Origin: Eledone cirrhosa
Lineage: Eukaryota
Assembly (NCBI GenBank): GCA_964016885.1
Contig: OZ024744.1
Span: 29,202,001-29,266,000 of the forward strand
Reading direction: 5' to 3'
Length of the DNA stretch: 64,000 bases
A program made the translations under genes and the position numbers. Shown here piece after piece: positions 1 through 49,529 of this stretch. The notes under the pieces are model-generated. The model did no database searches. It saw only the letters and a list, made by a program, of their open reading frames with translations, and was not told the origin of the DNA. Every line of letters starts with the position of its first letter. The stretch's first letter is position 1.

Positions 1-282
1 CGATTTATACACGCTATCGAAATACTCAATAAATATTCCGTCGCAACTGACAGGAAGGGCTGCTTTCGGTTATTTGTCGGAGATTTCTTCATAGAAGCCT
101 TTATTCTTATAGCCTGGTCTAATTGATTTTTATATGGTTAATTATGGTAATTGGGAGAGGAAACGGTATATATATTTTATCTGGTGATTCTATAGACATG
201 TTTTATGATATATAGCTCTGATTGTTTAATTTATTAACTCTTCATTGAGCCACAAAGTGACCCGTTGCAAAACACACAGACG

Positions 283-331
<49 letters not shown>

Positions 332-338
<7 letters not shown>

Positions 339-443
339 TGAGATTCTACAGGACTAGAACTGTTTCATTCATTTGAAATTATCAGATTCCTGATGATTTC
401 AAATGAATGAAACAGTTCTAGTCCTGTAGAATCTCATCTATAT
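332..443. repeat. Near-perfect inverted repeat (54-bp arms, 4-nt loop)
   Basis: Arms 332-385 and 390-443 are reverse complements with one mismatch. Confidence 0.95.
384..434 (+). ncRNA. Type I hammerhead ribozyme motif (Penelope pLTR-like) inside a fold-back
   Basis: agattc-CTGATGA-tttcaaatgaat-GAAA-cag ttctagtc ctg-TA-gaatct. Stem I is 6 bp, stem III is cag/ctg, the triplet is GUA. Stem II is weak (U-U closing pair). Confidence 0.6.
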
Positions 444-516
444 TAAAACTGTTATACTCTGCTATGTATTGAGTACCTTACTTACTGTGGTTACCTCCGA
501 TTCAACCCGGAATAAC

Positions 517-875
<359 letters not shown>

Positions 876-1890: not shown

Positions 1891-2017
1891 TACACGCAAA
1901 ACCTCCACACCAACACACACACACACGCACTCTGTGTTTTCATCCTGTACTGTCATAATGTTTTAGTTGATGTAAACCCTTTGTGGTTAATAAAGAAATC
2001 ATTTTTATTATTATTAT
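1891..2017 (+). mobile_element. Severely 5'-truncated Tx1 3'-UTR end
   Basis: tacacgca...tgtaaaccctttgtggttaataaagaaatcatt matches the 3' terminus of the copy ending at ~49295. Confidence 0.75.
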
Positions 2018-2272
2018 AGCTGTTGTTGTTGTTGTTGTTTCCATACTGCTTAAATTAGTTACTCCTAACAAAATGGATTAACAAGATAAAACCAGAAAGA
2101 AAAGCTAACACTAAAAGAACAAATTGTCATTCAGGAGGTCACAGTATGTGTCACGAAAGTCCTGGACGAACTAAATAACTAATAGAAAAGATACAGAAAA
2201 TCGTATAGTGTGTGTGTGTGTAATTTTATTGGCAATACATGTAACATGACCCTCCCCAAATATAAAAATATA

Positions 2273-2967
2273 TACGAGGGTGCTTCAAAAAAATCATATG
2301 CAGGGATTTTGATCTCGATGCACTTGTACGTTCTCGTACTAACGTGTCATAACATGTTCTAACGTGAACCCTTAAATGCATATTGCAACGTGGCACCGCC
2401 AGTCGGAAGTCAGCAGCCTTCGAGCAGCATGGCCTTCATCAAAACATCAAATTCATGGAGCAAGTTTATGGGGACAATGTCCCAAATAAATCAGCAACCT
2501 ACAAATAGATAAGTCGTTTTAGAAGTGGAAGAGATGACGTTGAAGATAATCCCCAGTTGAAGATGTAAAAATAAGCTGCTTTGAAATGGTTTAAGTTACA
2601 TGGTCCTCAGTTTTACACAGATGGACTTAAAGGCTGGTATCAATGGTTGTTTGACATGGTTTAACTCACATGGCCCTCAGTGTTACACAGATGGACTTAA
2701 AGGCTGGTATCAACGGTTATTTGAAATGGTTTAACTCACATGGCCCTCAGTGTTACACAGATGGACTTAAAGGCTGGTATCAACGGTTATTTGAAATGGT
2801 TTAAATCACCTGGCACACAGTGTTACACAAATGGACTTAAAGGCTGGTATCAACGCTTGCAGAAGTGTATTGACCTAGATAGAGCATATATTAGAAAATA
2901 AACATCATAATTTAAACCAATTTTTCCAACTGTCCTTTTTCCATAAACATTTTGAAGTCCCCTTGTA
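2273..2967 (+). mobile_element. Internally deleted mariner (Tc1/mariner) transposon
   Basis: TIRs tacgagggtgcttcaaaa / ttttgaagtccccttgta with TA ends. HTH remnant VYGDNVPNKSATYK*ISRFRSGRDDVEDNP and C-terminus TNGLKGWYQRLQKCIDLDRAYI. Confidence 0.8.
2581..2855 (+). repeat. 4 x 70-bp tandem repeat made from the mariner transposase 3' end
   Basis: Units start at 2581, 2651, 2721 and 2791 (ttgaaatggtttaa...aggctggtatcaa). Confidence 0.9.
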
Positions 2968-3879
2968 TTTCACCACGCGATTTTACATCACGAATCTTGC
3001 AAAATAAATACATATTAATGATAATAGTTTCCTACATGCTTAGAAAAAATAAACCATGAGGTAGCAGGTCAAAAATCAAAACATGTGACTAAATATGGTT
3101 GGCACCAGAATCACATTCAACTATAAATATTTGCCTCATGGAACCTGCCAGGTCGACCCTGCTTTATTGGGGGAAGGGGACATCAAAATGCTTTTTTGTG
3201 TTGTAGAGGCCAGAAATTTGAGGGCAGAGAAACAGTTTTTTTTTAATGCATTGGCTGTCTTCTCTGTTTCACTGAACAATGTCAAGGTTGACAGAATGTT
3301 TTTAAGTGTAACCTCCATCAAAACTAAACTCAGAATAAGGTAGCGATAAAAACAAGACACTATTAAAGAGAACAAAAACAAGGAGATGAAAAGAAGAAAA
3401 GGAATCAAGAAACGAAGAAAGGCAGAGGGGAAGAGACAATCACTACATTATTTTAACCCCAGAACTTGACTGCTACTTTATTTATCAACCCTGTTATTTG
3501 ATCATAGGAGAGTACCGTATATCCCGGCGTACAAGTCGACATTTGCAACCTAAACATATCTCTCCAAAACTATTCAGGTGTGACGCCAGAAATGACTGCA
3601 CAGGCGGGAGAGTGGATAGTCACAAGCTCACTGTTGTCAAAATGAAAAGAAGAAAAGATTAAGGGAAAGTGTAACACAAAATAGCAAAGAATATGAGGTG
3701 TATGGGTGGGGGGGATAAGTTGACGCATGATGGGTAAGGGGCCAAAGGAGCGAAATAATCCACAAATTCCTTACAATTTTGAAACAAAATACAAAGAGAT
3801 GAGACAAAATTGGGAAAGGTAAACATGTAAAAAATGATAATTATGATTCTTTTCTTATCAAGGAGAAATGGTAGGAATA

Positions 3880-3990
3880 TCAATTGACCCCAGAATATGA
3901 CTGGTACTTTATTCCATTGAACCCACAAGTATGATAGATGGCGTAGTTGACTTTAGTGGGGTTTCAACTTAGGACATAATAGAAGGTATT
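3880..3990 (-). mobile_element. Old degenerate SINE fragment
   Basis: gactggtactttatt...gttgacttt..gggtttcaact resembles the SINE body on the - strand. Confidence 0.4.
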
Positions 3991-4209
3991 TCTAAATAGC
4001 ACAAGATATTTTGCCTAATGCTCTACAGAATCTGGCTAATCCTATACCAGTCATTAATGCCGGTAACTTTGAAAAATGAAGCTGCTGGCGTATGTCCAGC
4101 ATACGTCACTTTGTCACTTCCTCTTCCGCCTCCCTAATTTTTTACTCTTTTATCTTTTTCCTCCCTCACACTATTCCTCCATTTGTATATTTGCTACCAT
4201 CAGAGAACA

Positions 4210-4260
4210 GTACTACTACAACTACCAACAGCAGCAGTAGCAGTAGTAGTAGTAGTAGTA

Positions 4261-4346
<86 letters not shown>

Positions 4347-4411
4347 GGTGGTGGTAAGAAGAAGAAGTAAAGCAACTACACCAACTACTACTACTACTAC
4401 AAAAGCAACAA

Positions 4412-4485
<74 letters not shown>

Positions 4486-5488
4486 GCAACTACCATATCA
4501 CCATCGCTATCATCACCATTGTCATTCCCACCACCACCATCATCATCACCACCATCATCATCACCACCATCATCATCATCATCATCACCATCACCACCAC
4601 CATCACCATCACCATCATCACTACCATCGTAACTATCATCACCACCATCATCATCATCTCCATCACCACCATCATCATCATCATCACCGCCATCACAGTC
4701 ATCCCCATCGCTATCATCACCATCATCATCAACACCATCACCATCAACACCATCACCATCAACACATCATCATCAACACCATCATCAACACCATCATCAC
4801 CATCACCATCATCACCATCACCATCATCACCATCACCACCATCACCACCATCACCATCATCACCATCACCATCATCACCATCACCATCATCACCATCATC
4901 AACACCATCATCACCATCCCCATCATCACCATCACCATCATCACCATCATCAACACCATCATCCCCATCATCATCAACACCATCATCATCCCAATCATCA
5001 ACACCATCATCACCATCCCCATCACCATCATCATCATCAACACCATCATCACCACCATCATCATCCCCATCACCATCACCACCATCACCACCATCAGCAT
5101 CATCCCCATCATCATCATCACCATCACCATCATCACCATCACCATCATCACCATCACCATCATCATCATCATCATCATCACTATCATCACCATCATCATC
5201 ATCCCCATCATCATCATCACCATCATCACCATCACCATCATCATCATCATCACTATCATCACCATCATCATCATCCCCATCATCATCATCACCATCATCA
5301 CCATCACCATCACCATCATCATCCCCATCACCATCAACACCATCATCACTATCATCATCATCATCAACAACATCATCATCATCATCACCATCATCACCAT
5401 CACCATCATCACCAGCACCATCATCATCATCATCCCCATCATCATCAACACCATCGTCATCATCACCATCATCATCGTCATCATCACC

Positions 5489-5519
<31 letters not shown>

Positions 5520-5625
5520 ACAACATCATCATCATCATCACCATCATCATCATCACCATCATCACCATCACCATCACCATCATCATCCCCATCATCATCA
5601 ACACCATCACCATCAACACCATCAT
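4210..5625. repeat. (AGT)n, (ACT)n and long (CAT/CAC)n trinucleotide low-complexity tract
   Basis: Directly visible. Source of spurious poly-S/T/D/M ORFs. Confidence 0.95.
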
Positions 5626-5918
5626 CCACCGCCCTAACATGGCGTCCGACCCTCTACTGATACTGCCAATCCACTGCCAATCCAAGTAATAATGATTTCT
5701 TTATTTATTTATTTCTTTATTTATTTATTTATTTATTAATAATAATTTCTACTTTAGGCACAAGGCCAGCAATTACCCAGTGCATTACTGGTACTTTATT
5801 TTATCGACCCCGTAAAGATGAAAGGCAAAGTCAACCTCGGCGGGATTTGAACTCAAATCGTAAAGGGACGTAACTATGCTGGAAAGCATGGCTTCCGGCC
5901 CTCTACCGATACTGCCAA
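5626..5918 (-). mobile_element. SINE (5746-5918), then a Tx1-type terminus (5688-5705), then a SINE head fragment (5626-5684)
   Basis: The - strand reads tggcagtatcggtagagggccgg...ccttgtgcctaaagtagaaa, then attatt..aataaagaaatcattatt, then ggattggcagtatcagtagagggtcggacgccatg. Confidence 0.85.
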
Positions 5919-5958
5919 TAATAATGAAACGCATTATTTCTCAAAATGGCAACACTTA

Positions 5959-6185
5959 TCTAATATATATTTGTGAAATGGGTGGTGGTTGAAATTCAGA
6001 TGTGCACGGTTAAATGGTAGTAGACGTGGTTGGACTGACATGAAAATTTACACACCTATGTAAAAAGTGCCAAGGAAGCAAATAGACTTGAAAAATGTGG
6101 TCCCTGGGGCCCCAAAACTATCGCGTTCGGTGAGTTATTTCCCCCTGTTCTAATACGTTTGTCTTATTTACAATTTTATACAAAT
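5959..6185 (+). mobile_element. 5' part of a non-autonomous Helitron-like element
   Basis: Starts a|TCtaatatata and is nearly identical to 7993-8235. Confidence 0.5.
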
Positions 6186-6479
6186 AAAGCAGTAAATAAA
6201 AGATTATGAGAAAATATCAACTGTAATGTATGTATGCATGTATTTATGTGTTTATATGAGCGGGGATATGCAAGTAAATCTTACTTTGTGGACAGCTTAT
6301 CCTTAGCATAATATTCATGCTAGAACAGCATATATTTGAAAGTTTTCAGGGAGTTGAATTACTGATTTTTGATCGGCAGCTTTAGCTTTGAAAAAATGAA
6401 ATGTGCAGTGTAAACATTTTTTATTATTCCTCCGGGTATGAATCTTCTCTACATGTTTCCATCTCTTTTTTTCTCTCTG

Positions 6480-6829
6480 GAAGAAATCAGCCGTAGTAAG
6501 ACCTAAAAAAATGGTTAGATACACCATGACGCACCGTGCATCACGGTGGAGTTGAAAAGCAGACTCAGAACATGGCGTTGTGTGGGGTGGCTCGCAGCCC
6601 AGTGTTCCAGGGGGAGCAAAAGGAGAAGGAGAAGAAGAAGAAGAAGAAGAAGAAGAAGAAGAAGAAGAAGAAGAAGAAGAAGAAGAAGAAGAAGAAGAAG
6701 AAGAAGAAGAAGAAGAAGAAGAAGAAGAAGAAGAAGAAGAAGAAGAAGAAGAAGAAGAAGAAGAAGAAGAAGAAGAAGAAGAAGAAGAAGAAGAAGAAGA
6801 AGAAGAAGAAGAAGAAGAAGAAGAAGAAG

Positions 6830-6858
<29 letters not shown>
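6480..6858 (+). mobile_element. Probable LINE (RTE-like) 3' remnant followed by a ~230-bp (GAA)n tail
   Basis: Frameshifted ...GGVEKQTQN / AAQCSRGSKR resembles an RTE C-terminus. The (GAA)n tract at ~6628-6858 is certain; the LINE call is tentative. Confidence 0.4.
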
Positions 6859-6860
<2 letters not shown>

Positions 6861-7169
6861 GAGTTGGAGTCCTATCAAATATGTAGGTTGTGTCTTAAAT
6901 TGAAGGTTTAGTAGAAACAATTCATGTATAGTTTTGTACTTTTCTTTTTGTCATTCATATATAAACAAATCAACTATATAAATTGGAAGTGCTCGGACGT
7001 TGTATATGTAGGTGTAGTCGGATAAACGTCGAAACGGCTTGGTGGAATGCAGCGAAAATTTACACAGTTATGCAGATTGACCCGAGGTGGGCGTTGGGTC
7101 GACTTTCAAGCTACAAACTTCCATAGTTACGGAGAAAATCGATGAAACAGGAATTTCCTATTCAAATTG

Positions 7170-7390
7170 AACTGAGAGTAATCTGTGAACGCAGAAGTAA
7201 TTATTTCGAGAAACGTTGCAACCGAACGAAAACAGGAAGACGATATTTTGGTTCGTGAAGACGTTCCCTGGCAATGAACGGGAAAAAAGCGAGGATAATA
7301 CGTCGTTATGTGGAGTGTGAAGAACAATTTCATGCAAAGACAGGACCAAGTTTATGTTATAAATGGAGTCGTTAGACTAATATTCTATTT
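7170..7390 (+). repeat. Dispersed copy of the TIR-like repeat also at 24023-24150, 24406-24697 and 25590-25885
   Basis: Shared aatctgtgaacgcagaagt...acaggaagacgata..ttggttcgtgaa.acgttccctggcaa...gactaatattct. Confidence 0.7.
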
Positions 7391-7589
7391 AAAATAACAG
7401 AATGATTTCCAGCCCCGGAGTTTAAGAATGATGTAAATAAAATTGAAAACGAAAATGACAGAGGTTATTAAAATAGTAAAAGTAAATAGTGAAGATTTAG
7501 GCCGGACATACACATACACACTCACACACACACACGCGCGCACACACGCACGCACGCGCTTATGCATTTCTACAGTATTTTCACCAAAC

Positions 7590-8586
7590 TTAAGACATAG
7601 GTTACTTATGTACTCCGGATGGTCATGGGCACTGTTATTTTTCCAGATATTGATTATAGGGTCCCCCGGCAGATAACCCCTTTAACCACTTTAACCATTT
7701 CCTTGGAGTCGACTGAAGCACTGCAGTGTAATGATACAAAACTTCATAATTTCTTGAGTTCGCAACCGATTTTCACAAAACTTGACACATGGGCTACGTT
7801 TGTCCTACAGATGAATGTGAACTCTCAGTATTGGCACATATTGGGTAGGGGACCCCTGGGGGCAGGAACCCCCTTTTGGAAAAAGCCGATGATTTTGTAA
7901 AAGTATAGTTTTCGAAGCAGCACTGAAGTATTGACATAAGTGGTATACACAACTGCTATTTAATATCCAAGCAACGCCGGGTTATCTGCTAGTCTAATAT
8001 ATAACTGTGAAATGGGCGGTGGTTGAAATTCAGATGTGCACGGTTAAATGGTAGTAGACGTGGTCGGACTTACATGAAAATTTACACACCTATGTAAAAA
8101 GTGCCAAGGAAGCAAATAGTCGAGGTTTCAAATCTCTAACTTGAAAAATGTGGTCCCTGGGGCCCCAAAACTATCGCGGTCGGTGAGTTATTTCCCCCTG
8201 TTCTAATACTTTTGTCTTATTTACAATTTCATACAAATTTTTAAACTCATCAACGTTCTTTCGCTGTTAATATACAGTACCAATAATTTGAAAAATATTA
8301 TTGAAAGTTTATTATAAAGAAGCAGTTTCAGGAAAAAGTGTAAACTATCATACAAACCTTCATAATATGCATTTTTAAACTTGCATATCATCGACATTGC
8401 TATTTCGCTGTTAATAAACAACGCTTTTCACGTCGCTCGACTTCTCATTGTACGCCGTCCAGCCCCAAGTGCATATTTCTATTTTTTTTCCTGAAACTGC
8501 TTCTTTATAAAAAACTTTCAATAATATTTTTCAAATTATTAACTTAATAAAAAGTGGCTCCGGGTGCAACCGGGCTCAGCTGCTAG
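7590..8586 (+). mobile_element. Two tandem non-autonomous Helitron-like units (junction at 7991/7993)
   Basis: 3' ends gcaacgccgggttatctgCTAG|t and ccgggtgcaaccgggctcagctgCTAG|t (GC-rich hairpin-like sequence plus CTAG). The second unit starts TCtaatatata. Confidence 0.55.
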
Positions 8587-8712
8587 TATTATATATTTTA
8601 TACTTTTGTTCTAATATCTGTCTGTAATAATACAAAATCTCACACTAAAGATCACTGAGTGAAACTTGAGCTGCAGTTAAAATTAAAAACTTGTTCATAT
8701 GTACACACACTC

Positions 8713-8751
<39 letters not shown>

Positions 8752-8811
8752 CGTGTATCTGTGTGTGTGTGTGTGTATTTATACATATACACACACACAC
8801 ATATATGAATA

Positions 8812-8879
<68 letters not shown>

Positions 8880-8884
<5 letters not shown>

Positions 8885-9160
8885 TAAACCATATAAAACA
8901 TATATATATATATATCATAAAACATGTCTATAGAACATGCACCGGACTCTTCAGGAAGTTAGCTCAAATTTAGACAATAAATTTTCCAAAGTGATCGTGC
9001 CAAGAATACATTCAAAAATGGCTAAGAATCGTGACGTAGCAGCGGTCAGGTTAGAAGGAATGTGGTTAGTTGCTTACGGCTGGTGGCTTTTTGCTAGAAA
9101 GCGCAGCACAATACAGCCAAATTTGAATCTCAACCTAACGGGAGATTATTACATATAAAG

Positions 9161-9226
<66 letters not shown>

Positions 9227-9689
9227 GTGTTTTGCAACGGGTCACTTTGTGGCTCAATGAAAAGTTAATAAATTAAATAATCAGAGCTATATATCATAAA
9301 ACATGTCTATAGAATCACCAGATAAATTATATACCATTTCCTCTCCCAATTAGCATAATTAATCATATAAAAAATCGAATAGACCAAGCTATAAGAATAA
9401 GGCTTCTATGAAGAAATCTCCAACAAATAACCGAAACCAGCCCTTCGCGCCGGCTGCGACGGAATATTTATCGAATATTTCGACAGCGTAATCGCCCAGA
9501 TATACAGTCAATTAAACAGAATTAGGTGTAAAATAAACTAGGAGAAAAGTGAACACATTTAGTTACTTCGACCATGGTTTCGTCCACATGTTAAGATATC
9601 CGATAGCTTCGGAACCTAGAGCACCGGACTCTTCAGGAAGTTAGCTCAAATTTAGACAATAAATTTTCCAAAGTGATCGCGCCAAGAAT
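8880..9689 (-). mobile_element. Non-autonomous Penelope-like/retrozyme element: one ~680-nt unit plus a deleted second unit
   Basis: 9621-9689 is repeated at 8939-9007, and 9290-9314 is repeated at ~8912-8935. A complete hammerhead lies at 9565-9641. No ORF. Confidence 0.65.
9565..9641 (-). ncRNA. Type I hammerhead ribozyme (canonical core)
   Basis: acttc-CTGAAGA-gtcc[ggtgctctaggttccgaagctatcggatatcttaacatgt]ggac-GAAA-ccatgg-TC-gaagt. Palindromic stem III, GUC triplet, predicted cut between 9570 and 9569. Confidence 0.85.
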
Positions 9690-9729
9690 GATATTAAATA
9701 AATGGAAACTATATTTATAAAACCATATT

Positions 9730-9792
9730 TATTTTATTATATATATTTCAAGGGTACCAAAACACTTTGGTACGCTTTCTTCAGATAAAATA
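9730..9792 (-). ncRNA. Second type I hammerhead ribozyme (different sequence family)
   Basis: tattttat-CTGAAGA-aagcgtaccaaa gtgt tttggtaccctt-GAAA-tatata-TA-ataaaata. Stem I 8 bp, stem II 11/12 bp, palindromic stem III, AUA triplet. Confidence 0.75.
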
Positions 9793-9844
9793 CAAAGTTT
9801 GTTTTATAAATAGAGACATACCCAGGAAAAGCATACCTTATCAG

Positions 9845-9926
<82 letters not shown>

Positions 9927-9928
<2 letters not shown>

Positions 9929-10110
9929 GCGGTAGATTGGCAGTAATAACGGTAGAGGGTCGGACGCCATGCTTTCCAGCATAGTTACCTCCCTTTACGA
10001 TCTGAGTTCAAATCCCGCCTAGGTTGACTTTGCCTTTCATCCTTACGGGGTCGATAAAATAAAGTACCAGTAATGCACTGGGTAATTGCTGGCCTTGTGC
10101 CTAAAGTAGA

Positions 10111-10116
<6 letters not shown>
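9927..10116 (+). mobile_element. tRNA-derived SINE inserted in (TA)n
   Basis: gggcggtagattggcag...gttcaaatccc...ccttgtgcctaaagtagaaacaat, flanked on both sides by (TA)n. Confidence 0.9.
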
Positions 10117-10174
<58 letters not shown>

Positions 10175-10213
10175 ATAATAAAATACATGGAACTCCTTTA
10201 ACCATCTTTTGAT

Positions 10214-10303
<90 letters not shown>

Positions 10304-10934
10304 TGTGTATCTATATACGTATATGTATATATTGTTTGGTAAATCTATTGACATTTTACGAAAACGTAGCTTCAAACAACTCACATGGGATTGGCTATAT
10401 TCTTTTATTTACTGCTTTTTCTTTGTTTCTTTATTTTTCCTTAATTTAAAACCTAATGAAGTTGGCTATCAAGTGGCCGTTTCTATTCCTACGAGAATCT
10501 ATTATTCTAAATACCTTTCAGGCTATTACCAAAAAGTCAACAGAACAAAAAATTTAAAAAATATATTTTTTTTAAATCATAAAAAGTAGGTTTAGAATTT
10601 CCGTGAAAGATACTTTATATAAGACCACCATCACTTGCACCAATAAATTCGTCTTGGTATTCTTACCAATAATAGTTCCACCCTATTAAATATACTTTTA
10701 CAGTAAAATAATTATTATCAAGTATTGATTGTTAATCTCTTTTTTGTTGTTGTTGTTTTTAATTTTCTTTTTTGTGCATTGTTTCTTAATTTAATTTCTT
10801 CATTACTATTATTACTAGCAGAAAACCCGCACCACGGCCAGTTTTCTCCTAGCGTATGTAGTGTGCATATAGATATTATATGCAAATATATATACATATA
10901 GATATGATACGTAAATTGAAATGTAAATTGTCTT

Positions 10935-11062
10935 AACTTGGTGGCTTATTAACAGAGGTAATTGGCGATGCTCGCGAAGGCGCTTGGCTGTCCCAACACA
11001 TCAGCCTCGCTGTCACATGAGGTAACGCTGCGAGTGTGCTGGCTTGCCTCAAAAATTATTAG
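10935..11062 (+). pseudogene. C-terminal remnant of a CRE-like (restriction-like endonuclease) non-LTR retrotransposon
   Basis: Translates LTEVIGDAREGAWLSQHISLAVT*GNAASVLACLKNY*, matching the QRISxAxQRGNAxxxL terminal motif. Confidence 0.55.
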
Positions 11063-11147
11063 AGAGGTTTCCCAGTACTCCTCGCTATATTGTAAGCTGT
11101 TGTTTTGGTAGTGGTTTGTTTGTACACCCCTTTCACCTGACTTTTGT

Positions 11148-14100
11148 TCTATGTGGTCCTATATGTGTGTATTACCTACCTGTGTATTGTATGTGGTCCT
11201 AGATGTGTGTATTACCTGCTAGTGTGTTGTATGTGGTCCTAGATTTGTGTATTACCTGCTTGTGTGTTGTATGTGGTCCTAGATTTGTGTATTACCTGCT
11301 TATGTGTTGTATGTGGTCCTAGATTTGTGTATTACCTGCTTGTGTGTTGTATGTGGTCCTAGATTTGTGTATTACCTGCTTATGTGTTGTATGTTATCCT
11401 AGATGTATGTATTACCTGCTTGTGTGTTGTATGTCGTCCTAGATGTGTGTATTACCAGCTTATGTGTTGTATGTGGTCATAGATGTGTGTATTACATGCT
11501 TAGGTATTGTACATGTGTGTATTACCTGCTTGTGTGTTGTAAGTGGTCCTAGATGTGTGTATTAACTGGTTGTGTGTTGTATGTGGTCCTAGATGTGTGT
11601 ATTACATGCGTGTGTGTTGTATGTGGCCCTGGATGTGTGTATTACCTGCTTCTGTGTTGTATGGGGTCGTAGATGTGTGTATTCCCCACCAGTGTGTGGT
11701 ATGTGGTACTAGACGTGTGCATTACCTACTTATGTGTTGTATGTGGTCCTAGGTAAGTGTATTACCTGCTGGTGTATTGTATGTTGTCCTAGATGTGTAT
11801 ATTACCTGCTTGTGTCTTGTATGTGGTCCTAGATATATGTAGTACATGCTTTTTTGTTGTATGTGGGCCTAGGTGTATGTATAATCTGCTTCTGTGTTGT
11901 ATGTGTTCCTAGATGTGTGTATTATCTACTTGTGTGTTGTATGTGGTCGTAGATGTGTGTATTACCTGCTTAGGTATTGTATGTGGTCCTAGATGAGTAT
12001 ATTACCTGCTTGTGTATTATATGTGATCTTAGATGTATGTATTATCTACTTGTGTATTGTATGTGGTCCTAGATTTGTGTATTACCTGCTTATGTGTTGT
12101 ATGTGGACCTAGATGTGTGTATTAGGTGCTCGTGTGTTGTATGTGGTCCTAGAAGTATGTATTACATGTTTGTGTACTGTATGTGGTTCTAGGTGTGTCT
12201 ATTACCTGCTTGTGTGTTGTATGTGGTCCTAGATGTATGTATTACCTGCTTGTGTGTTGTATGTAGTCCTAGATGTATGTATTACATGCTTGTGTGTTGT
12301 ATGTGGCCCTAGATGTTTGTATCACCTGCTTGTGGGTTGTATGTGGTCCTAGATGTATGTATTACCTGCTTGTGTGTTGTATGTGGTCCTAGATGTGTGT
12401 ATTACCTGCTTGTGTATTGTATGTGGTCCTAGATGTATGTATTAATGCTTGTATGTTGTATGTAGTCCTAGATGTATGTATTAACTGCTTGTGTGTTGTC
12501 TGTGATCCTATATGTATGTATTACCTGCTTGTGTGTCGTATGTGGTCCTAGATGTATTTATTACCTGCTTGTGTGTTGTATGTGGTCCTAGATAAGTGTA
12601 TTACCTGCTTGTGTGCTGTATGTGGTCCTAGATGTGTGTATTACCTGCTTGTGTGTTGTATCTGGTCCTAGATATATGTATTTTCTTGCTTGAGTGTTAT
12701 ATGCGGTCCTAGGTATGTGTATTACCAGCTTGTGCTGTATGTTGTCATAGATGAATGTATTACCTGCTTGTGTGTTTTATGTGGTCCTAGATGTATGTAT
12801 TAATGCTTGTATATTGTAGGTGGTCCTAGATGTGTGTATTACCTGCTGGTCTGTTGTCTGTGATCCTAGAGGTGTATATTACCTGCTTGTGTGTTGTATG
12901 TGGTCATAGATGTGTGTATGACATGCTTGTGTGATGTATGTCGTCCTACATGTATGTATTATCTACTTGTGTGTTGTATGTTGTCCTAGATGTATGTATT
13001 ATCTACTTGTGTATTGTATGTGGACATAGATGTGTCTTTTACCTGCTTAGGTATTGTATGTGGTCCTAGATGTGTATATTACCTGCTTGAGTGTTGTATG
13101 TAGTCCTAGATGTGTGTATTACCTGCTGGTGTGTTTTATGTAGTCCTAGATGTGTGTATTACCTGATTCTGTGTTGTATGTTGTCCTAGATGTATGTATT
13201 ATCTACTTTTGTATTATATGTGGTCATAGATGTGTGTATTACCTGCTTATTTGTTGTATGTGGTCCTAGATGTGTGTATTACGTGCTCGTCTGTTGTATG
13301 TGGTCCTAGATGTATGTATTACCTGCTTGTGGGTTGTATGTGGTCCTAGATGTATGTATTACCTGCTTGTGTATTGTATGTGGTCCTAGATGTGTATATT
13401 ACCTGCTAATGTATTGTATGTGGTCCCAGATGTATGTATTACTGCTTGTATGTTGTATGTGTTCCTAGATGTATGTATTACCTGCTTGTGTGTTGTCTGT
13501 GATCCTAGATGTGTATATTACCTGCTAATGTATTGTATGTGGTCCCAGATGTATGTATTACCTGCTTGTGTGTTGTATGTAGTCTTAGATGTATGTATTA
13601 CCTGCTTGTGTTTTGTATGTGGTCCTAGATTTGGCATTACAGATTGTGTGTTGTATGTGGTCCAAGATGTGTGTATTAGTTGCTAGTGTGTTTTATGTGG
13701 TCGTCGGTGTGTGTATTACCTGCTAGTGTATTACCTGTGTATGTGGTCCTAGAATTGTTTGTTACCTACTTGTTACCTGCTTGTGAATTGTATTTGTTCT
13801 TAGATGTGTGTATTACCTGCTTGTGTGTTGTATGTGGTCCTGGATGTGTGTATTACCTGCTTGTGTGTTGTATGTGGTCCTAGATGTGTGTATTACCTGC
13901 TTGTGTATTGTATGCGGCCCTAGATGTGTGTATTACCTGCTTGTGTGTTGTATGTGGTCCCAGATGTAGGTACTATCTGCTTGTGTATAGTATGTGGTCC
14001 AAGATCAATGTATTACCGTCTAATGTGTTGTATGTGGCCATAGATGTGTGTATTACCTGCTTGTGTGTTGTATGTGGTCCTGGATGTGTGTATTACCTGC

Positions 14101-17100
14101 TTGTGTGTTGTATGCGGCCCTAGATGTGTGTATTACCTGCTTGTGTTGTATGTGGTCCTAGATGTGTGTATTACCTGCTTGTGTGTCGTATGTGGTCCTA
14201 GATGTATGTATTACCTGCTTATGTGTTGTATGTGGTCCTAGATGTGTGTATTACCTGCTTATGTGTTGTATGTGGTCCTAGATGTGTGTATTACCTGCTT
14301 GTGTGTTGTATGTGGTCCTAGATGTATGTATTACCTGCTTGTGTGTTGTATGTGGTCCTAGATGTATGTATTACCTGCTTGTGTGTTGTATGTGGTCCTA
14401 TATATGTGTATTACCTGCTTGTGTGTTGTATGTGGTCCTAGATGTATGTATTACCTGCATGTGTGTTGTATGTGGTCCTAGATGTATGTATTACCTGCTT
14501 GTGTATTGTATGTGGTCCTAGATGTGTATATTACCTGCTAATGTATTGTATGTGGTCCCAGATGTATGTATTACTGCTTGTATGTTGTATGTGTTCCTAG
14601 ATGTATGTATTACCTGCTTGTGTGTTGTCTGTGATCCTAGATGTGTATATTACCTGCTAATGTATTGTATGTGGTCCCAGATGTATGTATTACCTGCTTG
14701 TGTGTTGTATGTAGTCTTAGATGTATGTATTACCTGCTTGTGTTTTGTATGTGGTCCTAGATTTGGCATTACAGATTGTGTGTTGTATGTGGTCCAAGAT
14801 GTGTGTATTAGTTGCTAGTGTGTTTTATGTGGTCGTCGGTGTGTGTATTACCTGCTAGTGTATTACCTGTGTATGTGGTCCTAGAATTGTTTGTTACCTA
14901 CTTGTTACCTGCTTGTGAATTGTATTTGTTCTTAGATGTGTGTATTACCTGCTTGTGTGTTGTATGTGGTCCTGGATGTGTGTATTACCTGCTTGTGTGT
15001 TGTATGTGGTCCTAGATGTGTGTATTACCTGCTTGTGTATTGTATGCGGCCCTAGATGTGTGTATTACCTGCTTGTGTGTTGTATGTGGTCCCAGATGTA
15101 GGTACTATCTGCTTGTGTATAGTATGTGGTCCAAGATCAATGTATTACCGTCTAATGTGTTGTATGTGGCCCTAGATGTGTGTATTACCTGCTTGTGTGT
15201 TGTATGTGGTCCTGGATGTGTGTATTACCTGCTTGTGTGTTGTATGCGGCCCTAGATGTGTGTATTACCTGCTTGTGTTGTATGTGGTCCTAGATGTGTG
15301 TATTACCTGCTTGTGTGTCGTATGTGGTCCTAGATGTATGTATTACCTGCTTATGTGTTGTATGTGGTCCTAGATGTGTGTATTACCTGCTTATGTGTTG
15401 TATGTGGTCCTAGATGTGTGTATTACCTGCTTGTGTGTTGTATGTGGTCCTATATATGTGTATTACCTGCTTGTGTGTTGTATGTGGTCCTAGATGTATG
15501 TATTACCTGCATGTGTGTTGTATGTGGTCCTAGATGTATGTATTACCTGCATGTGTGTTGTATGTGGTCCTAGATGTATGTATTACCTGCGCATGTGTTG
15601 CATTTGGTCTTAGATGTCTGCATTGTTTGCGTGTGTATTGTATGTGGTCCTAGATGTGTGTATTACCTGCTTGTGTGTTGTATGTGGTCCTAGATGTATA
15701 TATTACCTGCTTATGTGTTGTATGTGGTCCTAAATCTGTGTATTACCTGCTTGTTTATGGTATGTGATCTTAGATATTTGTATTACATGCTTGTGTTGTA
15801 TGTGGTTCTAGAAATGTGTATTACCTGCTTGTGCGTTGTATGCAGTTCTAGATGTGTGTATTAACTGCGTATGTGTCGTATGTGTTCCTAGATATATGTG
15901 TTACCTGCTTGTGAATTGTATTTGTTCCTAGATGTGTGTATTACCTGCTTGTGTATTGTATGTGGTCTTAGATGTGAGTATTACCTGCTTGTTTGTTGTA
16001 TGTGGTCCTAGATGTCTGTATTACCTGCTTGTGTATTGTATGCGGCCCTAGATGTGTGTATTACCTGCTTGTGTGTTGTATGTGGTCCCAGATGTAGGTA
16101 CTATCTGCTTGTGTATAGTATGTGGTCCAAGATCAATGTATTACCGTCTAATGTGTTGTATGCTGTCCTAGGTGAGTGTATTACCTACTTATGCGTTGTA
16201 TGGGGTCCCAGATGTGGTATTACTGCTTGTGTCTAGTATGTGGTCCCAGATATGTGTATTACCTGCTTGTGTCTTGTATGTGTTCCTAGATATATGTATT
16301 ACCTGCTTGTGTGCTGTATGTGTTCCTAGAAATATGTATTACCTGCTTGTGTGTTGTGTGTGTTCCTAGATATATGTATTAACTGCTAGTGTGTATGTGT
16401 TACTAGATGTATGTATTACCTGATTGTGTGTTGTATGTGGTCATAGATGGTTGTTTTACCTGCTTATGGGTTGTATGTGGTCCTAGATGTATGTATTACC
16501 TGATTGGTGTGTTGTATTTGGCCACTGATGTGTGTATTACCTGCATGTGTAATGTATGTGGTCCTGGATGTGTGAATTACCGCTTCTGTGTTGTATGAGG
16601 TCCTAGATGTATGTATTACCTGCTTGTGTGTTGTACGTGGTCCTAGATGTGGGTATTACCTGCTTGTCTGTTGTATGTGGTCCTAGATGTATGTATTACC
16701 TGCTTGTGTGTTGTATATGGTCCTAGATGTATGTATTACTGCTTGTGTGTTGTATGTAGTCCTAGATGTGTGTATTACCTGCATGTGTTTTGTATGTGGG
16801 CCTAGATGTATGTATTACTGCGTATTTGTTACATTTGGTCTTAAATGTATGTATTACCTGCTTGCGTATGGTATGTGATCTTAGATGTTTGTATTACCTG
16901 CTTGTTTGTTGTATGTGGTTCTAGAAATCTGTATTACCTGCTTGTTTGTTGTATGTGATCCTAGATGTATGTATTAACTGCTTCTGTGTTGTATGTAGTT
17001 CTAGATGTGTGTATTAACTGCGTAAGTGTTGTATGTGGTCCTAGATCTATGTGTTAAATGCTTGTGAATTGTATTTGTTCCTAGATGTGTGTATTACCTG

Positions 17101-20100
17101 CTTGCGTATTGTATGTGGTCTTTGATGTGTGTATTACCTGCTTGTTTGTTGTATGTGGTCCTAGATGTGTGTATTACCTGTTTGTGTATTGTATGTGGCC
17201 CTAGATGTGTCTATTACCTGCTTCTGTGTTGTATCTGGTCCTAGAGGTGTGTACTAACAGCTTGTGTGTTATATGTGGTCCTAAATGTGTGTATTAGCTG
17301 CTTGTGTATTGCATGTGGTCCTAGACGCATTTATTACCTGCTTGTGTGGTGTATGTGGTCCTGCATGTATGTATTAACTCCTTATGTGTTGTATGTAGTC
17401 CTATATATTTGTATTAACTGATTGTGCGTTGTATGTGGTCCTAGATGTGTGTATTACCTGGTTGTGTTTTGTATGTGTTCCTAGATGTATGTATTACAGC
17501 TTGTGTATTGTATGTGGTCCTAGATGTGTGTATTATCTGCTTGTGTGTTGTATGTGGTCCTAGAGGTGTGTATTACCTACTTGTCTATTGTATGTGGTCC
17601 TAGATGTAGGTATTACCTGCTTGTCTACTGTATGTGGTCCTAGGTGTGTGTATTAGCTGTTAGTTGGTTGTATTTTGTCCTAGAGGTGTGTATTACCTGC
17701 TTGTGTACTTTATGTGATCCTAGATGTGTGTAGTACCCGCTTGTGTGTTGTATGTGGTCCTACATGTGTGTATTGTATGTGATCCTAGATGTGTGTATTC
17801 ACCGCTTGTGTATTGTATGTGTGTTATATTTGGTCCTATATCTATGAATTAACTGCTTGTGTGTTGTATGTGGTCCTAGATGTATGTATTATCTACTTGT
17901 GTAAGGTATGTATTCCTAGATGTGTGTATTACCTGATTGTGTGTTGTATGTGGTCCTAGTTGTGTGTATTCCCTGCTTGTGTGTTGTATGTGGTCCTAGA
18001 TGTGTGTATTACTGCTTGTGTGTTGTATGTATTCCTAGAAAAGTGTATTACCTGCTGGTGTGTTGTATGTGGTCCTAGATGTATGTATTACCTGCTTGTG
18101 TGTTGTATGTGGTCCTAGATATGTGTATTACCTGATTATGTATTGTATGTGGTCCTAGATGTGTGTATTACCAGCTTGTGTATTGTATATGGTCCTAGAT
18201 GTGTGAATTACCTGCTTATGTGTTATATGTGTTCCTAGATATGTGTATTAACTACTTGTTTATTAAATGTGATCCTAGATGTGTGTAATACCTGTTGGTA
18301 TGTTGTATGTGTTCCTAGATGTATGTATTACCTGCTTGTGTGTTGTATGTGGTCCAAGATGTGTGTATTTTATGTGATCCTTGATGTGTATTACCTGCTT
18401 GTGTGTTGTATTTGGTCCTAGATATGTGTTTTAACCGCTTGTGTATTGTATGTGTGTGATATGTGGTTCTAGATCTGTGTATTAACTGCTTGTGTGTTCT
18501 ATGTGGTCCTAGATGATTGTATTATCTACTTGTGTATTGTATGTGTTCCTAGATGTGTGTATTAGCTGATTGTATGTTGTATGTGATCCTAGATGGATGT
18601 ATTACTTAGTAGTGTGTTGTATGCGGTCATAAATGTATGTATTACCAACCTGTGCATTGTATGTGTTGCTAGCACTATGTATTACCTGCTTATGTGATGT
18701 ATGTGGTCCTAGTTGTGTTTATTACAGCTTCTGTGTTGTATGTGGTCCTAGATGTACGTATTACCTGCTTGTGTGCTGTATGTAGTCCTAGATGTATGTA
18801 TTACCTGCTTGTCTGTTGTATGTGGTCCTAGATGTGTGTATTACTGCTTCTCTGTTCTATGTGGTTACCTGCTGGTATGTTGTATGTGGTCCTAGATATG
18901 TGTATTACGTGCTTATGTGTTGTATGTGGTCCTAGATGTATGTATTACCTGGTGGTGTGTTGTATGTCGTCCTAGATGTGTGTATTACCTGCTTGTGTAT
19001 TTATATGGTCCAAGATGTGAATAATACCTGCTTATGTGTTGTATGTTGCCCTAGATGTGTGTATTACCTGCTTGTGTGTTGTATTTGTTCCTAGATGTAT
19101 GTATTACCTCCTGGTGTGTTGTATGTGGACCTAGATATGTATATTACCTACTTGATTATTATGTGTGGTCCTAGATGTATGTATTACCTGCTTGTGTGTT
19201 ATATTTATTCCTAGATGTATGTATTACCAGCTTGTGTATTGTTTGTGTTCCTAGATGTGTGTATTACCCACTTATGTGATGTATGTATTCTTAGATATGC
19301 TATTACTGCTTGTGTGTTGTATGTGGTCATATATGTATGTATTACCTGCTTGGGTGCTCTATGGGTCCTAGATATATGTATTACCTGATTGTGTGTTGTA
19401 TGTGATCCCAGATGTGTGCATTACCTGCTTGTGTGTTATATTTGATCCTAGATCTATATATTACCTGCTTGTGTGTTGTATGTAGTGCTAGATGTATGTA
19501 TTACCAGTTTGTGTATTGTATGTTGTACTAGATGTGTGTATTACTTGCTTGTGTGTTGTGTGTGGTCTTAGATGTCTGTATTACCTGCTTGTGTGTTGTA
19601 TGTAGTCCTAGATGTGTGTATTACCTGCTTGTGTGTTGTAAGTGCTCCTAGATGTATGTATTACTGCTTGTGTGTTTTATGTGATCCTACATGTGTGTAT
19701 TACCTGCTTCTGTGTTGTATGTGGTCCTAGTTGTGTGTATTCCCTGTTTCTGTATTGTATGTAGTCCTAGATGTATATATTACTGCTAGTGTGTTGTATT
19801 TGTTCCTAGATGTATGTATTACCTGATTGGTCTGTTGTATGTGGCCCTAGATGGGTGTATTACCTGCTTGTGTGTTGCATGTGGTCCTAGTTTATATTGC
19901 CTGCTTGTTTGATGTATATCGTCTTAGATGTATGTATTATCTGCTTGTGTGCTGTATGTGGTGCTAGATGTATATATTGCCTGCTTGTGTGTTGTATGTG
20001 GTCCTAGACGTGGGTATTACCTGCTTATGTGTTGTATGTGGTCCTAGATATATCTATTAATGCTTGTGTGCTGTATGTTATCCTAGATGTATGTATTACT

Positions 20101-21560
20101 GCTTCTGGGTTATATGTTGTCCTAGATGTGTGTATTACCTGCTTCTGTATTGTATGTGGTCCTAGATGTATGTATTACCTGCTTGTATGTTGTATGTGGT
20201 CCTAGATGTATCAATTACTGCTTGTGTGTCATATGTAGTCCTATATATGTGTATTACCTGATTATGTGTTTTATGTGGTACTACATGTATGTGTTACCTG
20301 CTTGGGTGTTGTATTTGCTCCTACATGCATGTATCACCTGCTTGTGTATTGTATGTGTTCCTAGATGTGTGTATTACCTTCTTGTGTATTGTGTGTGTTC
20401 CTAGATGTATGTATTACCTTCTTGTGTGTTGTATGTGTTCCTATATGTGTGTATTACCTGCTTGTGTGTTGTATGTGGTCCTAGATGTGTGTATTACTGT
20501 TTGTGTGTTTTATGTGGTCCTAGATATATGTATTGCCTGCTTGTGTGTTGTATGTGATCCTAGATGTATGTAATACCTACTTATGTGTTATATGTTGTCC
20601 TAGATAAGTGTATTACCTGATTATGTTTTGTATGTGGTCCTAGATGCATGTATTACCTGCTTGTGAGTTTTATATGATCCTAGATGTATGTATTATCTGC
20701 TTGTGTGTCGTATGTGGTCCTAGATGTATATATTACATGCTTGTGTGTTGTATGTGGTCCTTGATGTATGTATTACTGCTTGTATGATGTATGTAGTGAT
20801 GTATGTGTGTATTACCTGCTTATGTGTTGTATGTGGTCCTACATGTATGTATTATCTGAGTATGTGTTGTATATGAGCCTAGATGTATGTATTACCTGCT
20901 TGTGTGTTGCATGTGGTCCTAGGTGTATGTGTTTCCTGTTTGTGAGTTGGTTTTGGTCCTAGATGTGTGTATTACCTGCTTTTGTATTGTATGTGATCTT
21001 AGATGTGTGTATTGCCTGATTATGTTTTGTATGTAGTCCTACTTGTGTTTAACTGATTCTGTGTTTTATATCGTCCTATATGTGTGTATTACCTGCATGT
21101 GTGTTGTATGTGTTCCTAGATGCATGTTTTAACAGCTAGTGTGTTGTATTTGTTCCTAGATGTATGTATTGCCTGATTGGTGTGTTCTATTTGGCCCTAG
21201 ATGTGTGTATTAACTGCATGTGTGTTGTATGTGGTCCTAGATATATGTATTGCCGGCTAATGTGTTGTATGTGGTCCTACATATCGTATTAATGCTTGTG
21301 TGTTGTATGTATTCCTAGATGTATATATTACCTGCTTGTATGTTTTATGTGGTCCAAGATGTGTTTTACCTGCTTGTGTGTTGTATGTGGTCCTATGTGT
21401 ATGTATTATCTGCTAGTGTGTTGTATGTTGTCTTAGGTATGTGTATTACCTGCTTGTGTGTTGTACGTGGTCCTAGATGTATGTATTTCTTGCTTGGGTG
21501 TTGTATGTGTTCCTTTATATATTTACTTCTTGCTTGTGTGTGGTATGCCCTATGTGTGTG
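11148..21560 (+). repeat. 40-bp satellite array (~10.4 kb, ~260 units)
   Basis: Consensus tgtatgtggtcctagatgtgtgtattacctgcttgtgtgt. Higher-order duplication with period 1132 bp (13390-14521 vs 14522 onward). Confidence 0.97.
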
Positions 21561-21561
21561 T

Positions 21562-22786
21562 ATTCGATGGCAATACTTACAAGCAAATATCGGGGACTGC
21601 GATAGGCACAAAAGCCGCTCCAACTTATGCCAACTTAGTCATGGCATACTTAGAAGTCCAGATATATGAACAGTCCAAATCAAAATACGGATTGAACTTC
21701 CACAAATATTTATCAGAGAATTGGAAACGCTACTTGGATGATTGCCTCATTCTTTGGTCCCACACACTCGACCAACTGAAGGATTTCAAAAACTTAATAA
21801 ACGGCATCAATAACCACATCCAATTCACAATGGAATACAGCCAAGATCAACTCCCATTTCTGGACATCTTAATCACAAAAAAAGACACAAATATCGAAAC
21901 TGACATACACTACAAACCAACAGATTCCAAACAATATCTGCTATTCACCCCCAACCATCCAAAGCACACGAAGACGAACATTCCTTTTAACCTAGCAAGA
22001 AGAATTTGCACAATTGTCTCCAATTATGAAACGCGAAATAAAAGACTTCAAGAATTAAAGGAAATTCTACTTGAGAGAAAGTACCCACTATTACTAATAA
22101 ATAATGGAATAGAAAGGGCTAAAGCAATAGGCATTGATGAATTACGGAAACAGAAACAAATTCAAGGTACGTCCAATATTCTATCATATATCTCAACACA
22201 CAACCCAAGAAATGCGGAAGCTTACAACACTATTCACAATAACATCCCACTACTAAAACAAAACCCAAGAATGAAAAAAGCCCTTGAAACACACAAAATA
22301 ATCAAAAGCAAAAGACAACCAAAATCACTGAAAACATTACTCACCAATGCCAAATTACCTACCACAAACCCACAACCAAGTATCAAAAAATGTGGTCGCT
22401 CTAATTGTGGAACCTGCACTCACCTCATTGAAGGCAACACGTATACATTTAAATCAGGACAAAATTTTACTGTAAAAAATCACTTCACTTGCTCATCAAA
22501 AAATCTAATTTATGCCATTAAATGTAAAGGATGCAATGAAGATTATATAGGACAAACTAAACTCACACTCAGAAACAGAATGACAGTTCATCGCCAACAA
22601 TTACGAGATCCAACCACGAGACAAATACCACTAAGTGCACATCTAGACATTTGCGCAAGTAATAAGACACCCAAATTCCAAGTCTTCCCATTTTACCTTT
22701 GCGCTAACAATACAACAGAACAAATGCGAATAAATAAGGAAAATATGTTTATTCAAAAATATAGACCAACATTAAATAAGGTTTAA
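21562..22786 (+). CDS. 5'-truncated Penelope-like element ORF: reverse transcriptase C-half + GIY-YIG endonuclease
   Basis: YKQISGTAIGTKAAPTYANLVM, RYLDD, LPFLD, CGRSNCGTC, NLIYAIKC..C...YIGQT..LRNRMTVH..PLSAH..ENMFIQKYRPTLN. The N-terminus of ORF 21458 is satellite read-through. Confidence 0.9.
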
Positions 22787-23986
22787 TATACATTATGTCA
22801 ACACCACAATATGACATACACACACACACATAACACCTACTTTAGAAAATAAAAACCCGAACTAAATAAACCTTAAACATACGTTTGCACTGGCAATACA
22901 ACAGCAAACACGAAAAAGTCAGGAAAATATGTTCATTCAAAAATATTCCTACTAAAGGAATCATTTTCCTACACACACACATACACACACACAATATATA
23001 TATATATATATATATATTCTCTTCATCTTAACATGCTAACCATACTCCCACACACATAACACCCATACACACACATAAAAACCCCCACACCTACAACACC
23101 CTCCCCATTTCTACTAATAGAACCACTTTCCTACACACATATATATATACACACACACAAAAAATATATATTCTCTCTATCTAACATACTCGCACACACA
23201 CACATAACACCCATATACACACACACACAACTCCCTCCCCCATCTCTACTAATAGAATCATCTTCCAATACACACATACACACACACACATATACACACA
23301 CACAAGCACACAAATAAACACATATCTTCAGTCTCAATAGAAAATCTGAACTCTGACACCTGAACTCTGACAGCTGGCCATATTCACTGAACCAGAACAT
23401 TTCTCCCAATCCCTTTTCCCTTGACCACTATCTCTCCATTGTCATAACATTCACTATAGACTACAGAATAGTTTTCCAAATAAGGGCGCAAAAATGTAAT
23501 GAAAACTTGTTCACGTGACAGCCAAATTTCATTTATAACCAACCAAAAAAAAGCCTTCGTGAGCCTCATTTTTTCAAGTAAAAAGAAATTCAAACACTCA
23601 TATATGAAAAAACAACCTGTGACAACCCCCCCCCCCCCTCTCTTATTTGAAGAACTATTGTAACGCGAACTGGCGCAAAATTTATTATAATTATTGACAA
23701 ACCAATCAAATTACTTCTCGAAAAACCTGGTTTTCGAGCCAGTTTTTCCATATAAAACAAGTAACATTTAGAGACCAACCAGATGTGAGAAAAACCACAG
23801 ACCCTCCATCTCAACTCACCTTTTGAAAAGCAGAAGAACTGCGAAACCGGTAAAGGAACCAAATAAATATATATATTTTTAAAAAAATAAGACTTCAGTT
23901 GCATTTTCGATTTCATCCCTTTTTCTTTATACTTCCACTCGTGTAGGACACCTCGGTTATTTTTCATTTTGTAAAAAAAACCTCAC

Positions 23987-24027
<41 letters not shown>

Positions 24028-24248
24028 TAACAGATTAGAGTAAAGCAAAGAATCGCTGCTTTCACCCTTAACGGAATCTTCTGAAACTAAAATAAAAAAA
24101 ATCAACCTGTAAACGCAGAAGTAAATATTTCGAAAAACGTTACACACACTATATCTATATATATATATATAACGAAGGAAATGTGGTAAGGAACCAGGTG
24201 GACCATAACGCACCAAAGTACTCAATACTTGAGGTAGTAGAGTGGGTA

Positions 24249-24356
24249 ATAGGAACCAGTAAGACCCCGACAGCTGAGCTCAAGCCGTTTCGACGGCTAA
24301 TTCTCAGAATTAGCCGTCGAAACGGCTTGAGCTCAGCTGTCGGGGTCTTACTGGTT

Positions 24357-24361
<5 letters not shown>
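24249..24361. repeat. Perfect 56-bp-arm palindrome containing the 3' half of a hammerhead (Penelope pLTR-like fold-back)
   Basis: Arms 24249-24304 and 24306-24361. Contains GAAAcggc ttgagctca gctgTC. Flank gtattgagtac (-) is shared with the 332-520 element. Confidence 0.85.
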
Positions 24362-24405
<44 letters not shown>

Positions 24406-24408
<3 letters not shown>

Positions 24409-25885: not shown

Positions 25886-25973
25886 AATATTTGCTCTACG
25901 GTTCTTATATATTTGATATATATTTATCCTTATCAAGCCCTCTTTGGATTTTAGTCTTCAAATTTATTATTAT

Positions 25974-43067: not shown

Positions 43068-43267
43068 TTGGCAGTATCGGTAGTGGGTCGGACGCTATGC
43101 TTTCCAGCATAGTTACGTCCCTTTACGATCTGAGTTCAAATCCCGCTGAGGTTGACTTTGCCTTTAACCCTTACGGGGTCGATAAAATAAAGTACCAGTA
43201 ATGCACTGGGTAATTGTGCCTTGTGCCTAAAGTAGAAACAATTATTATTATTATTATTATTATTATT
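43068..43267 (+). mobile_element. SINE + (ATT)n tail between Tx1 C and Tx1 D
   Basis: A box tggcagtatcgg, B box gttcaaatccc, tail 43241-43267. Confidence 0.92.
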
Positions 43268-43480
43268 GAATGCCATGGTTGACGGAGGCTCGGCTCTGTA
43301 AGGTATAGTAATTTTTAACCGTTAAAACAATTGTAAATTGTTTAAAACTTGAACCAAATTGTTGATAAAGACACCCTCCTCCTCGTGAGAGGGGTCTTTC
43401 TGTCCGTTATTTGGCCCTTCGGGTTAAATAACCAGTTATTGGGGTTTTGTACCCAATATTCATTTTAAACAAAAATCAAC

Positions 43481-45247: not shown

Positions 45248-45610
45248 ATACACACAAGAAACTAATGACTTACATAATTGAACACACAGACATTTCACAA
45301 CAGGACTACATAATACCAGCACCAATCAAAACGCCAACTAACATAAGACTGCTAAAAAAATCGCACAGAAACAATACACAAATATTAAAACGAAATTCCC
45401 CAATGCAGTTGGTGATTTCAGGGACCTAGGAGGAACTATCAATCAAAGAGTATATTCAGACATTCTCTTAGAAGAGCCGACGACCAGCCGAAGGGACGAT
45501 TCAACGGTCCCTTCACCAGACGATCAAGTGAAAAGGGATGTAAAAACCATCCCTCCTCTACGAAAAGTACGGTAAGTGGTCTTTCCCATCTTTTCCACTC
45601 TATTTTAAAC

Positions 45611-49327: not shown

Positions 49328-49529
49328 GGCGGTGGACTGTTAGTATCGGTAGAGGGTCGAACGCCATGCTTTGACGTATAGAGTTACGGCCCTTCTATTC
49401 TGAGTTCAAATCCCGCCGAGGTAAACTTTGCCTTTCATCATTACGGTGTCGATAAAATAAAGTACGAGTAATGCACTAGATAATTGCTGGCCTTGTGCCA
49501 AACGTAGAAACAATTATTATTATTATTAT
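49328..49529 (+). mobile_element. SINE + (ATT)n tail between Tx1 D and Tx1 E
   Basis: Same SINE family; ends ccttgtgccaaacgtagaaacaattattatt. Confidence 0.9.

Follow-up and report, generated by a model that had tools for sequence, protein, structure and literature searches.

The window analysed here, a single stretch of 64,000 nt, contains a complete type I hammerhead ribozyme, HHR-B (9565–9641, − strand), within a non-coding unit of 682 nt that is followed by part of a second unit. We suggest that the unit belongs to a non-autonomous, Penelope-dependent family of the non-LTR retrozyme type, a reading to which we assign a probability of about 0.65, and that it likely derives from a Penelope pseudo-LTR (pLTR). 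With this finding, the hammerhead-bearing, Penelope-dependent repeats gain a family that is likely from a cephalopod. The known mechanism is left unchanged, and this copy looks decayed, likely a remnant of 1.1 units.

The hammerhead HHR-B

HHR-B has the CUGANGA, GAAA and NUH elements of a type I hammerhead, with stems I–III and an open end at stem I. On the − strand, stem I has 5 bp (9641–9637 with 9569–9565), the core is made up of CUGAAGA (9636–9630) and GAAA (9581–9578), and stem II has 4 bp (gtcc/ggac, 9629–9626 with 9585–9582) and a fifth G·U pair (9625/9586). The 40 nt between the 4-bp arms of stem II contain an inner hairpin (9613–9609 with 9603–9599). Stem III is an 8-nt palindrome (9578–9571) followed by GUC, with C17 at 9570, giving a predicted cut at 9570/9569. 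The initial annotation had described the core, the 5-bp stem I, the stem II with its insert and hairpin, and the palindrome, and all of these are located at 9641–9565; the cut position that it gave agrees with C17.

An Rfam scan of 9500–9720 matched the whole Hammerhead_1 model (RF00163) at 9642–9565, with 25.7 bits and E = 0.00021. The local match bears out the proposal that a hammerhead model would find the motif, although the score does not reach the gathering score of 34; a probable cause is that the 40-nt insert stands in for a 6-nt loop. HHR-B is absent among the 50 matches of the Rfam scan of the whole window, in which matches of low complexity to miRNA models were set aside. A descriptor scan of the 64,000 nt found three type I hammerheads, HHR-B and two others designated HHR-A and HHR-P, compared with a mean of 0.01 per shuffle in 100 block-wise dinucleotide shuffles, none of which had a palindromic stem III. 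For HHR-A and HHR-P this control is post hoc, because both were spotted by eye before the descriptor was relaxed; a stricter descriptor that required four contiguous stem II pairs did not detect either of them. A chance origin of HHR-B was rejected from the Rfam match, the shuffle control and the existence of a family copy. HHR-B is a real type I hammerhead by the Rfam and descriptor searches and its fold, and its self-cleavage is predicted.

The isolated HHR-B monomer is predicted to prefer a misregistered stem II. The pairing probability of the catalytic stem II is 0.14, and the active fold has −15.6 kcal/mol compared with −19.1 kcal/mol for the preferred fold. For a predicted transcript of 9700–8930, the pairing probability of stems I and II is 0.01. 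Cofolding of the homodimer gives a predicted double-hammerhead topology through the palindrome, with an energy gain that is not beyond chance, as it was equalled by 75 of 300 shuffles. Strong folding of the whole unit circle (z = −4.1) was also considered and rejected, since it is due to the (AU)n tract: once the AT tract is removed, the structure of the unit (9689–9226) does not exceed that of shuffles (z = −0.04).

The variation of HHR-B within its family was read from contigs of four DNA runs, X1–X4, aligned to 9230–9855 at 80% likeness. The runs represent at most two samples from one study, with 0.19–0.60 of the sampled words present, and gave 7,877–8,648 aligned contigs each for X1–X3 and 612 for X4. 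The small run X4 has no cover over 9545–9670, which proves nothing. Among the 40 variant rows listed of 106, there are eight substitutions in 9565–9641, and seven of the eight keep the fold. Nearly all of the depth differs from the window at 9567, where the pair is kept as U–A changes to U·G, and at 9586, where G·U changes to G–C. At 9570, about 77% of the X1 depth has A17 instead of C17, which is still a cleavable NUH. Four of the listed substitutions fall on unpaired positions, and a distal pair is lost through another, at 9615. Five of the eight lie on the 22 of 77 positions that are unconstrained (P = 0.039, weak support), and 4–7 contigs per run lack 1 nt of stem I. The listed variation mostly spares the fold. 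It had been proposed that the copies be compared for core conservation and stem covariation. None of the 40 rows listed changes the core or stem III of HHR-B; the unlisted rows may touch the core. There is no two-sided compensatory change for HHR-B among the same 40 of 106 rows. An exact pattern scan for the family core gave 0 matches in metagenome contigs and 0 in viral contigs.

The 682-nt unit and its copies

The full unit (9008–9689, − strand) consists of a 5′ leader, HHR-B, a segment Y on the 3′ side of the predicted cut site (9226–9564), an (AT)n tract (9167–9225) and a segment X (9008–9166). Without the (AT)n tract it has 623 nt and 37.6% GC. No stop-free stretch on the ribozyme strand exceeds 45 codons, the length of the longest, and neither six-frame reading nor tblastn with the local Penelope protein revealed a coding remnant. 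ARAGORN found 0 genes, giving no tRNA head in the unit.

The segment 9689–9621 is repeated 682 nt further on, at 9007–8939, with 68 of 69 positions identical (98.6%). This start of a second unit (8939–9007, − strand) comprises the leader and the 5′ half of the ribozyme, and it breaks off inside stem II, so that it has neither GAAA nor stem III nor the cut site. After 3 extra nt, the sequence continues at the equivalent of 9314, a deletion of 306 nt, and runs into (AT)n (8900–8938, − strand); 8935–8909 is identical to 9314–9288 at 27 of 27 positions. The recurrence of the ribozyme 5′ half, the deletion into downstream unit sequence and the overall layout of one unit plus part of a second had all been noted before, and the present analysis supports each of them. 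The suggestion of a circular RNA is not supported for this locus. Since only one complete family ribozyme is present, no unit-length circle can be excised here. The locus sits within (TA)n, and as each end of the unit is embedded in (AT)n or abuts another repeat, a target-site duplication is unreadable.

A second family copy is located at the start of the window (11–573, + strand), where a family member had been placed at 1–572. The match is confirmed at 11–335, which is 89% identical to the unit over 326 columns. This copy has Y (11–275), then (AT)n with a palindromic insert, the first 10–14 nt of X and again (AT)n; its ribozyme would fall just beyond the window edge. The 10-mer that follows the (AT)n tract and starts X is identical in the two copies and occurs nowhere else in the window. 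Thus, the order Y, (AT)n, X is found in both window copies. The insert at 332–439 is a near-perfect palindrome, the right arm of which starts with a hammerhead-like core, CUGAUGA and GAAA (390–417), without a stem I partner. This core is possibly an inverted Penelope-type stump.

Is the tandem junction peculiar to this locus? Seven X1 contigs have a loose end behind 9689 (agreement 0.95) that is identical to window positions 9008–9037, so that other copies, too, have X on the 5′ side of the ribozyme leader. Together with the Y-(AT)n-X order, this junction gives the multi-copy family an order of X, ribozyme, Y, (AT)n and X, which closes a loop without an ORF. The earlier description of a non-coding tandem unit is therefore in accord with both the short stop-free stretches and the junction, and the search for tandem copies that had been recommended has in part the expected outcome: the X-leader junction is present in the seven contigs, and the second ribozyme at the locus itself is incomplete.

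These data also bear on whether the family is SINE-like, a dispersed repeat of monomers that each have a single ribozyme, the second copy being a local duplication reshaped by slippage or deletion between AT runs. The 69-nt repeats are 98.6% identical, compared with 89% for the other window copy, and the second copy lacks 306 nt and terminates in (AT)n, as such a history would give. Furthermore, the DNA runs could include this very locus. However, the junction is found in the seven contigs, the Y-(AT)n-X link is repeated in an unrelated copy on the opposite strand, and there is no tRNA-like head. We therefore consider a SINE-like origin improbable.

Neighbouring hammerheads and a Penelope-like element

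A second, different type I hammerhead, HHR-A, is located at 9730–9792 (− strand), with an 8-bp stem I, a long stem II, a palindromic stem III and a predicted cut at 9738/9737. It did not figure in the initial annotation. A local Rfam scan gave no hammerhead match for HHR-A, and the motif rests on the descriptor and family variation. It is carried by a stump of about 160 nt (9687–9848, − strand) of a separate repeat family, which overlaps the unit by 3 nt and has an (AT)n tract upstream (9849–9925). The overlap, 9689–9687, reads ATT and may be due to chance in AT-rich DNA; ATT is the triplet that a Penelope endonuclease is described as preferring (PMC11167929). We infer that the stump is the 3′ end of a Penelope-like element. 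In the listed variants, about 97% of the depth has U instead of A at N7, the first stem II pair is kept as G·U, and stem III is changed at 9742; the tip of stem II (9761–9765) varies as well and has 2-nt deletions. A loose-end variant, read by eye, suggests a change of U–A to C–G in stem II.

HHR-A lies 88 nt upstream of HHR-B on the same strand, and the predicted cuts are 168 nt apart. This geometry would allow the two to be one functional cassette, releasing a circularisable 168-nt RNA (9737–9570). However, the contigs of the HHR-A repeat break off at 9687–9697, where the flanks are AT-rich and varied (24 of 734 loose ends listed), while the leader of HHR-B is preceded by X, and none of the 32 contig pieces listed bridges the junction (25,417 more are unlisted). 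The two ribozymes cannot cross-pair because their stem III palindromes differ. The summed X1 contig depth, which is no copy number and serves as a hint only, is 316,000–2,170,000 over HHR-A, 87,000–377,000 over most of Y and 2,000–12,000 over HHR-B, so that the two hammerheads differ more than 20-fold. This gradient hints at 5′ truncation and at two separate families. A joint cassette is thus very improbable, and the HHR-A repeat is separate from the unit and apparently very abundant.

The window also contains a 5′-truncated Penelope-like ORF outside the unit (21560–22786, + strand), with the C-terminal half of the reverse transcriptase (RT), a C-x4-C-x2-C linker and a GIY-YIG domain. It aligns with 75% identity to residues 365–772 of a 772-residue protein, and the first ~363 of ~770 residues are missing. 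Among the 120 matches listed of 161, Octopus bimaculoides provides the named match of highest identity (76% across 58% of the query); Argonauta hians has 61% over 98% of the query, and bivalves are next with 43–47%. From these matches, the host is likely an octopod. A linker of the C-x4-C-x2-C type marks the Neptune and Nematis clades, and the Neptune type is proposed to favour insertion at (TA)n, according to PMC8557442. A metagenome search for related Penelope loci gave one distant locus (24% identity), which lacks a convincing hammerhead.

The 3′ UTR of this element contains the third hammerhead, HHR-P (23819–23856, + strand), about 135 nt before (AT)n. It is a minimal type I motif with a U3:A8 core and a palindromic stem III, and it too had not been named before. 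The local Rfam scan gave no hammerhead match for HHR-P, and the motif rests on the descriptor. Thus, three different Penelope-type hammerheads lie within 15 kb, two of which were missed by Rfam even in a local scan.

It had been proposed that the unit is copied by a Penelope RT such as that of the 21562–22786 reading frame. A non-autonomous, Penelope-dependent family is still the likely reading. The link to this particular copy is not supported: it could not itself supply the RT because it is 5′-truncated, its hammerhead is different, and its 3′ UTR has no BLASTN similarity to the unit. The last two points also led us to reject the unit as a pLTR of the local Penelope element. No mobilising partner was identified for the unit in this analysis.

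Could the unit instead be the pLTR or 3′ end belonging to a Penelope-like family that is autonomous and has ORF copies elsewhere, the locus being a 5′-truncated partial tandem that forms no small circle? HHR-B fits the architecture of pLTR hammerheads given in PMC4209133, and the neighbouring Penelope element with HHR-P has exactly such an arrangement. The rise in summed X1 depth from the ribozyme to Y is what 5′ truncation would give, taken as the same hint and not as copy number. However, Y leads through (AT)n to X in both window copies, and X leads to the ribozyme leader here and in the seven contigs, closing a loop that is free of an ORF. An ORF with RT and GIY-YIG adjoins the unit in neither of the two window copies, and the unit has no coding remnant in either of the searches described above. 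We regard the pLTR of an autonomous family as a serious minority possibility; such a pLTR and a retrozyme-type family are related states.

We favour the non-autonomous, retrozyme-type family, for which the presence of a Penelope-like ORF with its own hammerhead in the same window also speaks. Its steps are modelled on the published scheme as outlined in PMC7229834 and PMC4209133. Intact tandem copies elsewhere would be transcribed as multimers, in which the palindromic stem III may join neighbouring ribozymes, which would cut as dimers or as weak monomers. A host ligase may close the monomers into circles, and a Penelope-like RT/endonuclease acting in trans would insert copies longer than one unit into (TA)n. 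A bolder version is that the family is an active octopod retrozyme, in which intact arrays yield abundant circular RNA of 620–700 nt, the internal (AT)n is the helper's preferred target, and new copies home into old ones and so build arrays. We think this rather unlikely. If intact arrays exist, the family would provide a non-vertebrate test of the proposed origin of retrozymes from pLTRs.

Several other repeats were observed in the window. A near-perfect palindrome of 112 nt (24250–24361) lies beside (AT)n and lacks a canonical hammerhead core. Inverted repeats of about 320 nt (24402–24724 and 25571–25890) surround about 850 nt, with related pieces at 24023–24140 and 7180–7288; this is a MITE-like or inverted Penelope-type structure. 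A satellite array (~11015–21550) with a 40-nt repeat in at least 204 copies directly adjoins the truncated Penelope ORF. Two long ORFs of 592 and 1204 residues are found at 43469–49030 (+ strand), the second of which reads by eye as the endonuclease and RT of a non-LTR retrotransposon; numerous decayed copies lie in the region from 27 to 63 kb. The segment 9947–10112 is a dispersed repeat with copies at 5734–5919, 43068–43216, 49401–49522, 53592–53777 and 62688–62873, which may be a common octopus SINE-like repeat.

Comparison with known systems

An active retrozyme is defined by Li, Clavereau and Pollet (2026, preprint 10.64898/2026.07.22.740005) as a run of two or more units in which every unit has a complete hammerhead. 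Two consecutive complete ribozymes are absent at this locus, where the second is half deleted, and the unit is not unusually self-paired; because of these two points, we do not class this copy as an active retrozyme. The cleavage part of the model is tempered by the lizard Penelope element PAc, the hammerhead of which is described as cutting only with protein and as dispensable for insertion in vitro (PMC11167929). The preprint also reports cleavage by only one of nine retrozyme dimers. Our literature search found no cephalopod retrozyme in the texts that it covered, and supplementary lists outside its reach may name some. For the giant squid genome, 235 Hammerhead_1 motifs are annotated (PMC6962438).

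Compared with the metazoan non-LTR retrozymes, the locus differs in having only 1.1 units and one complete ribozyme. The characterised circles are 170–400 nt long and show a high degree of self-pairing (Cervera and de la Peña 2020, PMC7229834), whereas the present unit is longer, at 682 nt, and has a z of −0.04; it also has an internal (AT)n tract and a stem II extended by the 40-nt insert. In other respects the two are alike. The unit is non-coding, has less than 50% GC and one type I hammerhead per unit, and is arranged head-to-tail; helix III has 2 bp and a palindromic tetraloop, and Penelope-like elements coexist with it. Its length lies within the 51–972 bp reported for the Xenopus retrozyme units, which are related to pLTRs according to the same preprint.

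Hammerheads are standard in pLTRs, and most are single motifs of truncated Penelope-like elements, with a helix I of 4–5 bp, a long helix II and a palindromic helix III, as described by Cervera and de la Peña (2014, PMC4209133). HHR-P resembles these in its U3:A8 core, a variant that the same source reports for Penelope hammerheads. HHR-B shares with them the type I topology, the 5-bp helix I, the enlarged helix II and a palindromic helix III that is predicted to act as a dimer, and the partial tandem layout and AT-rich surroundings of the locus are likewise those of Penelope pLTRs.
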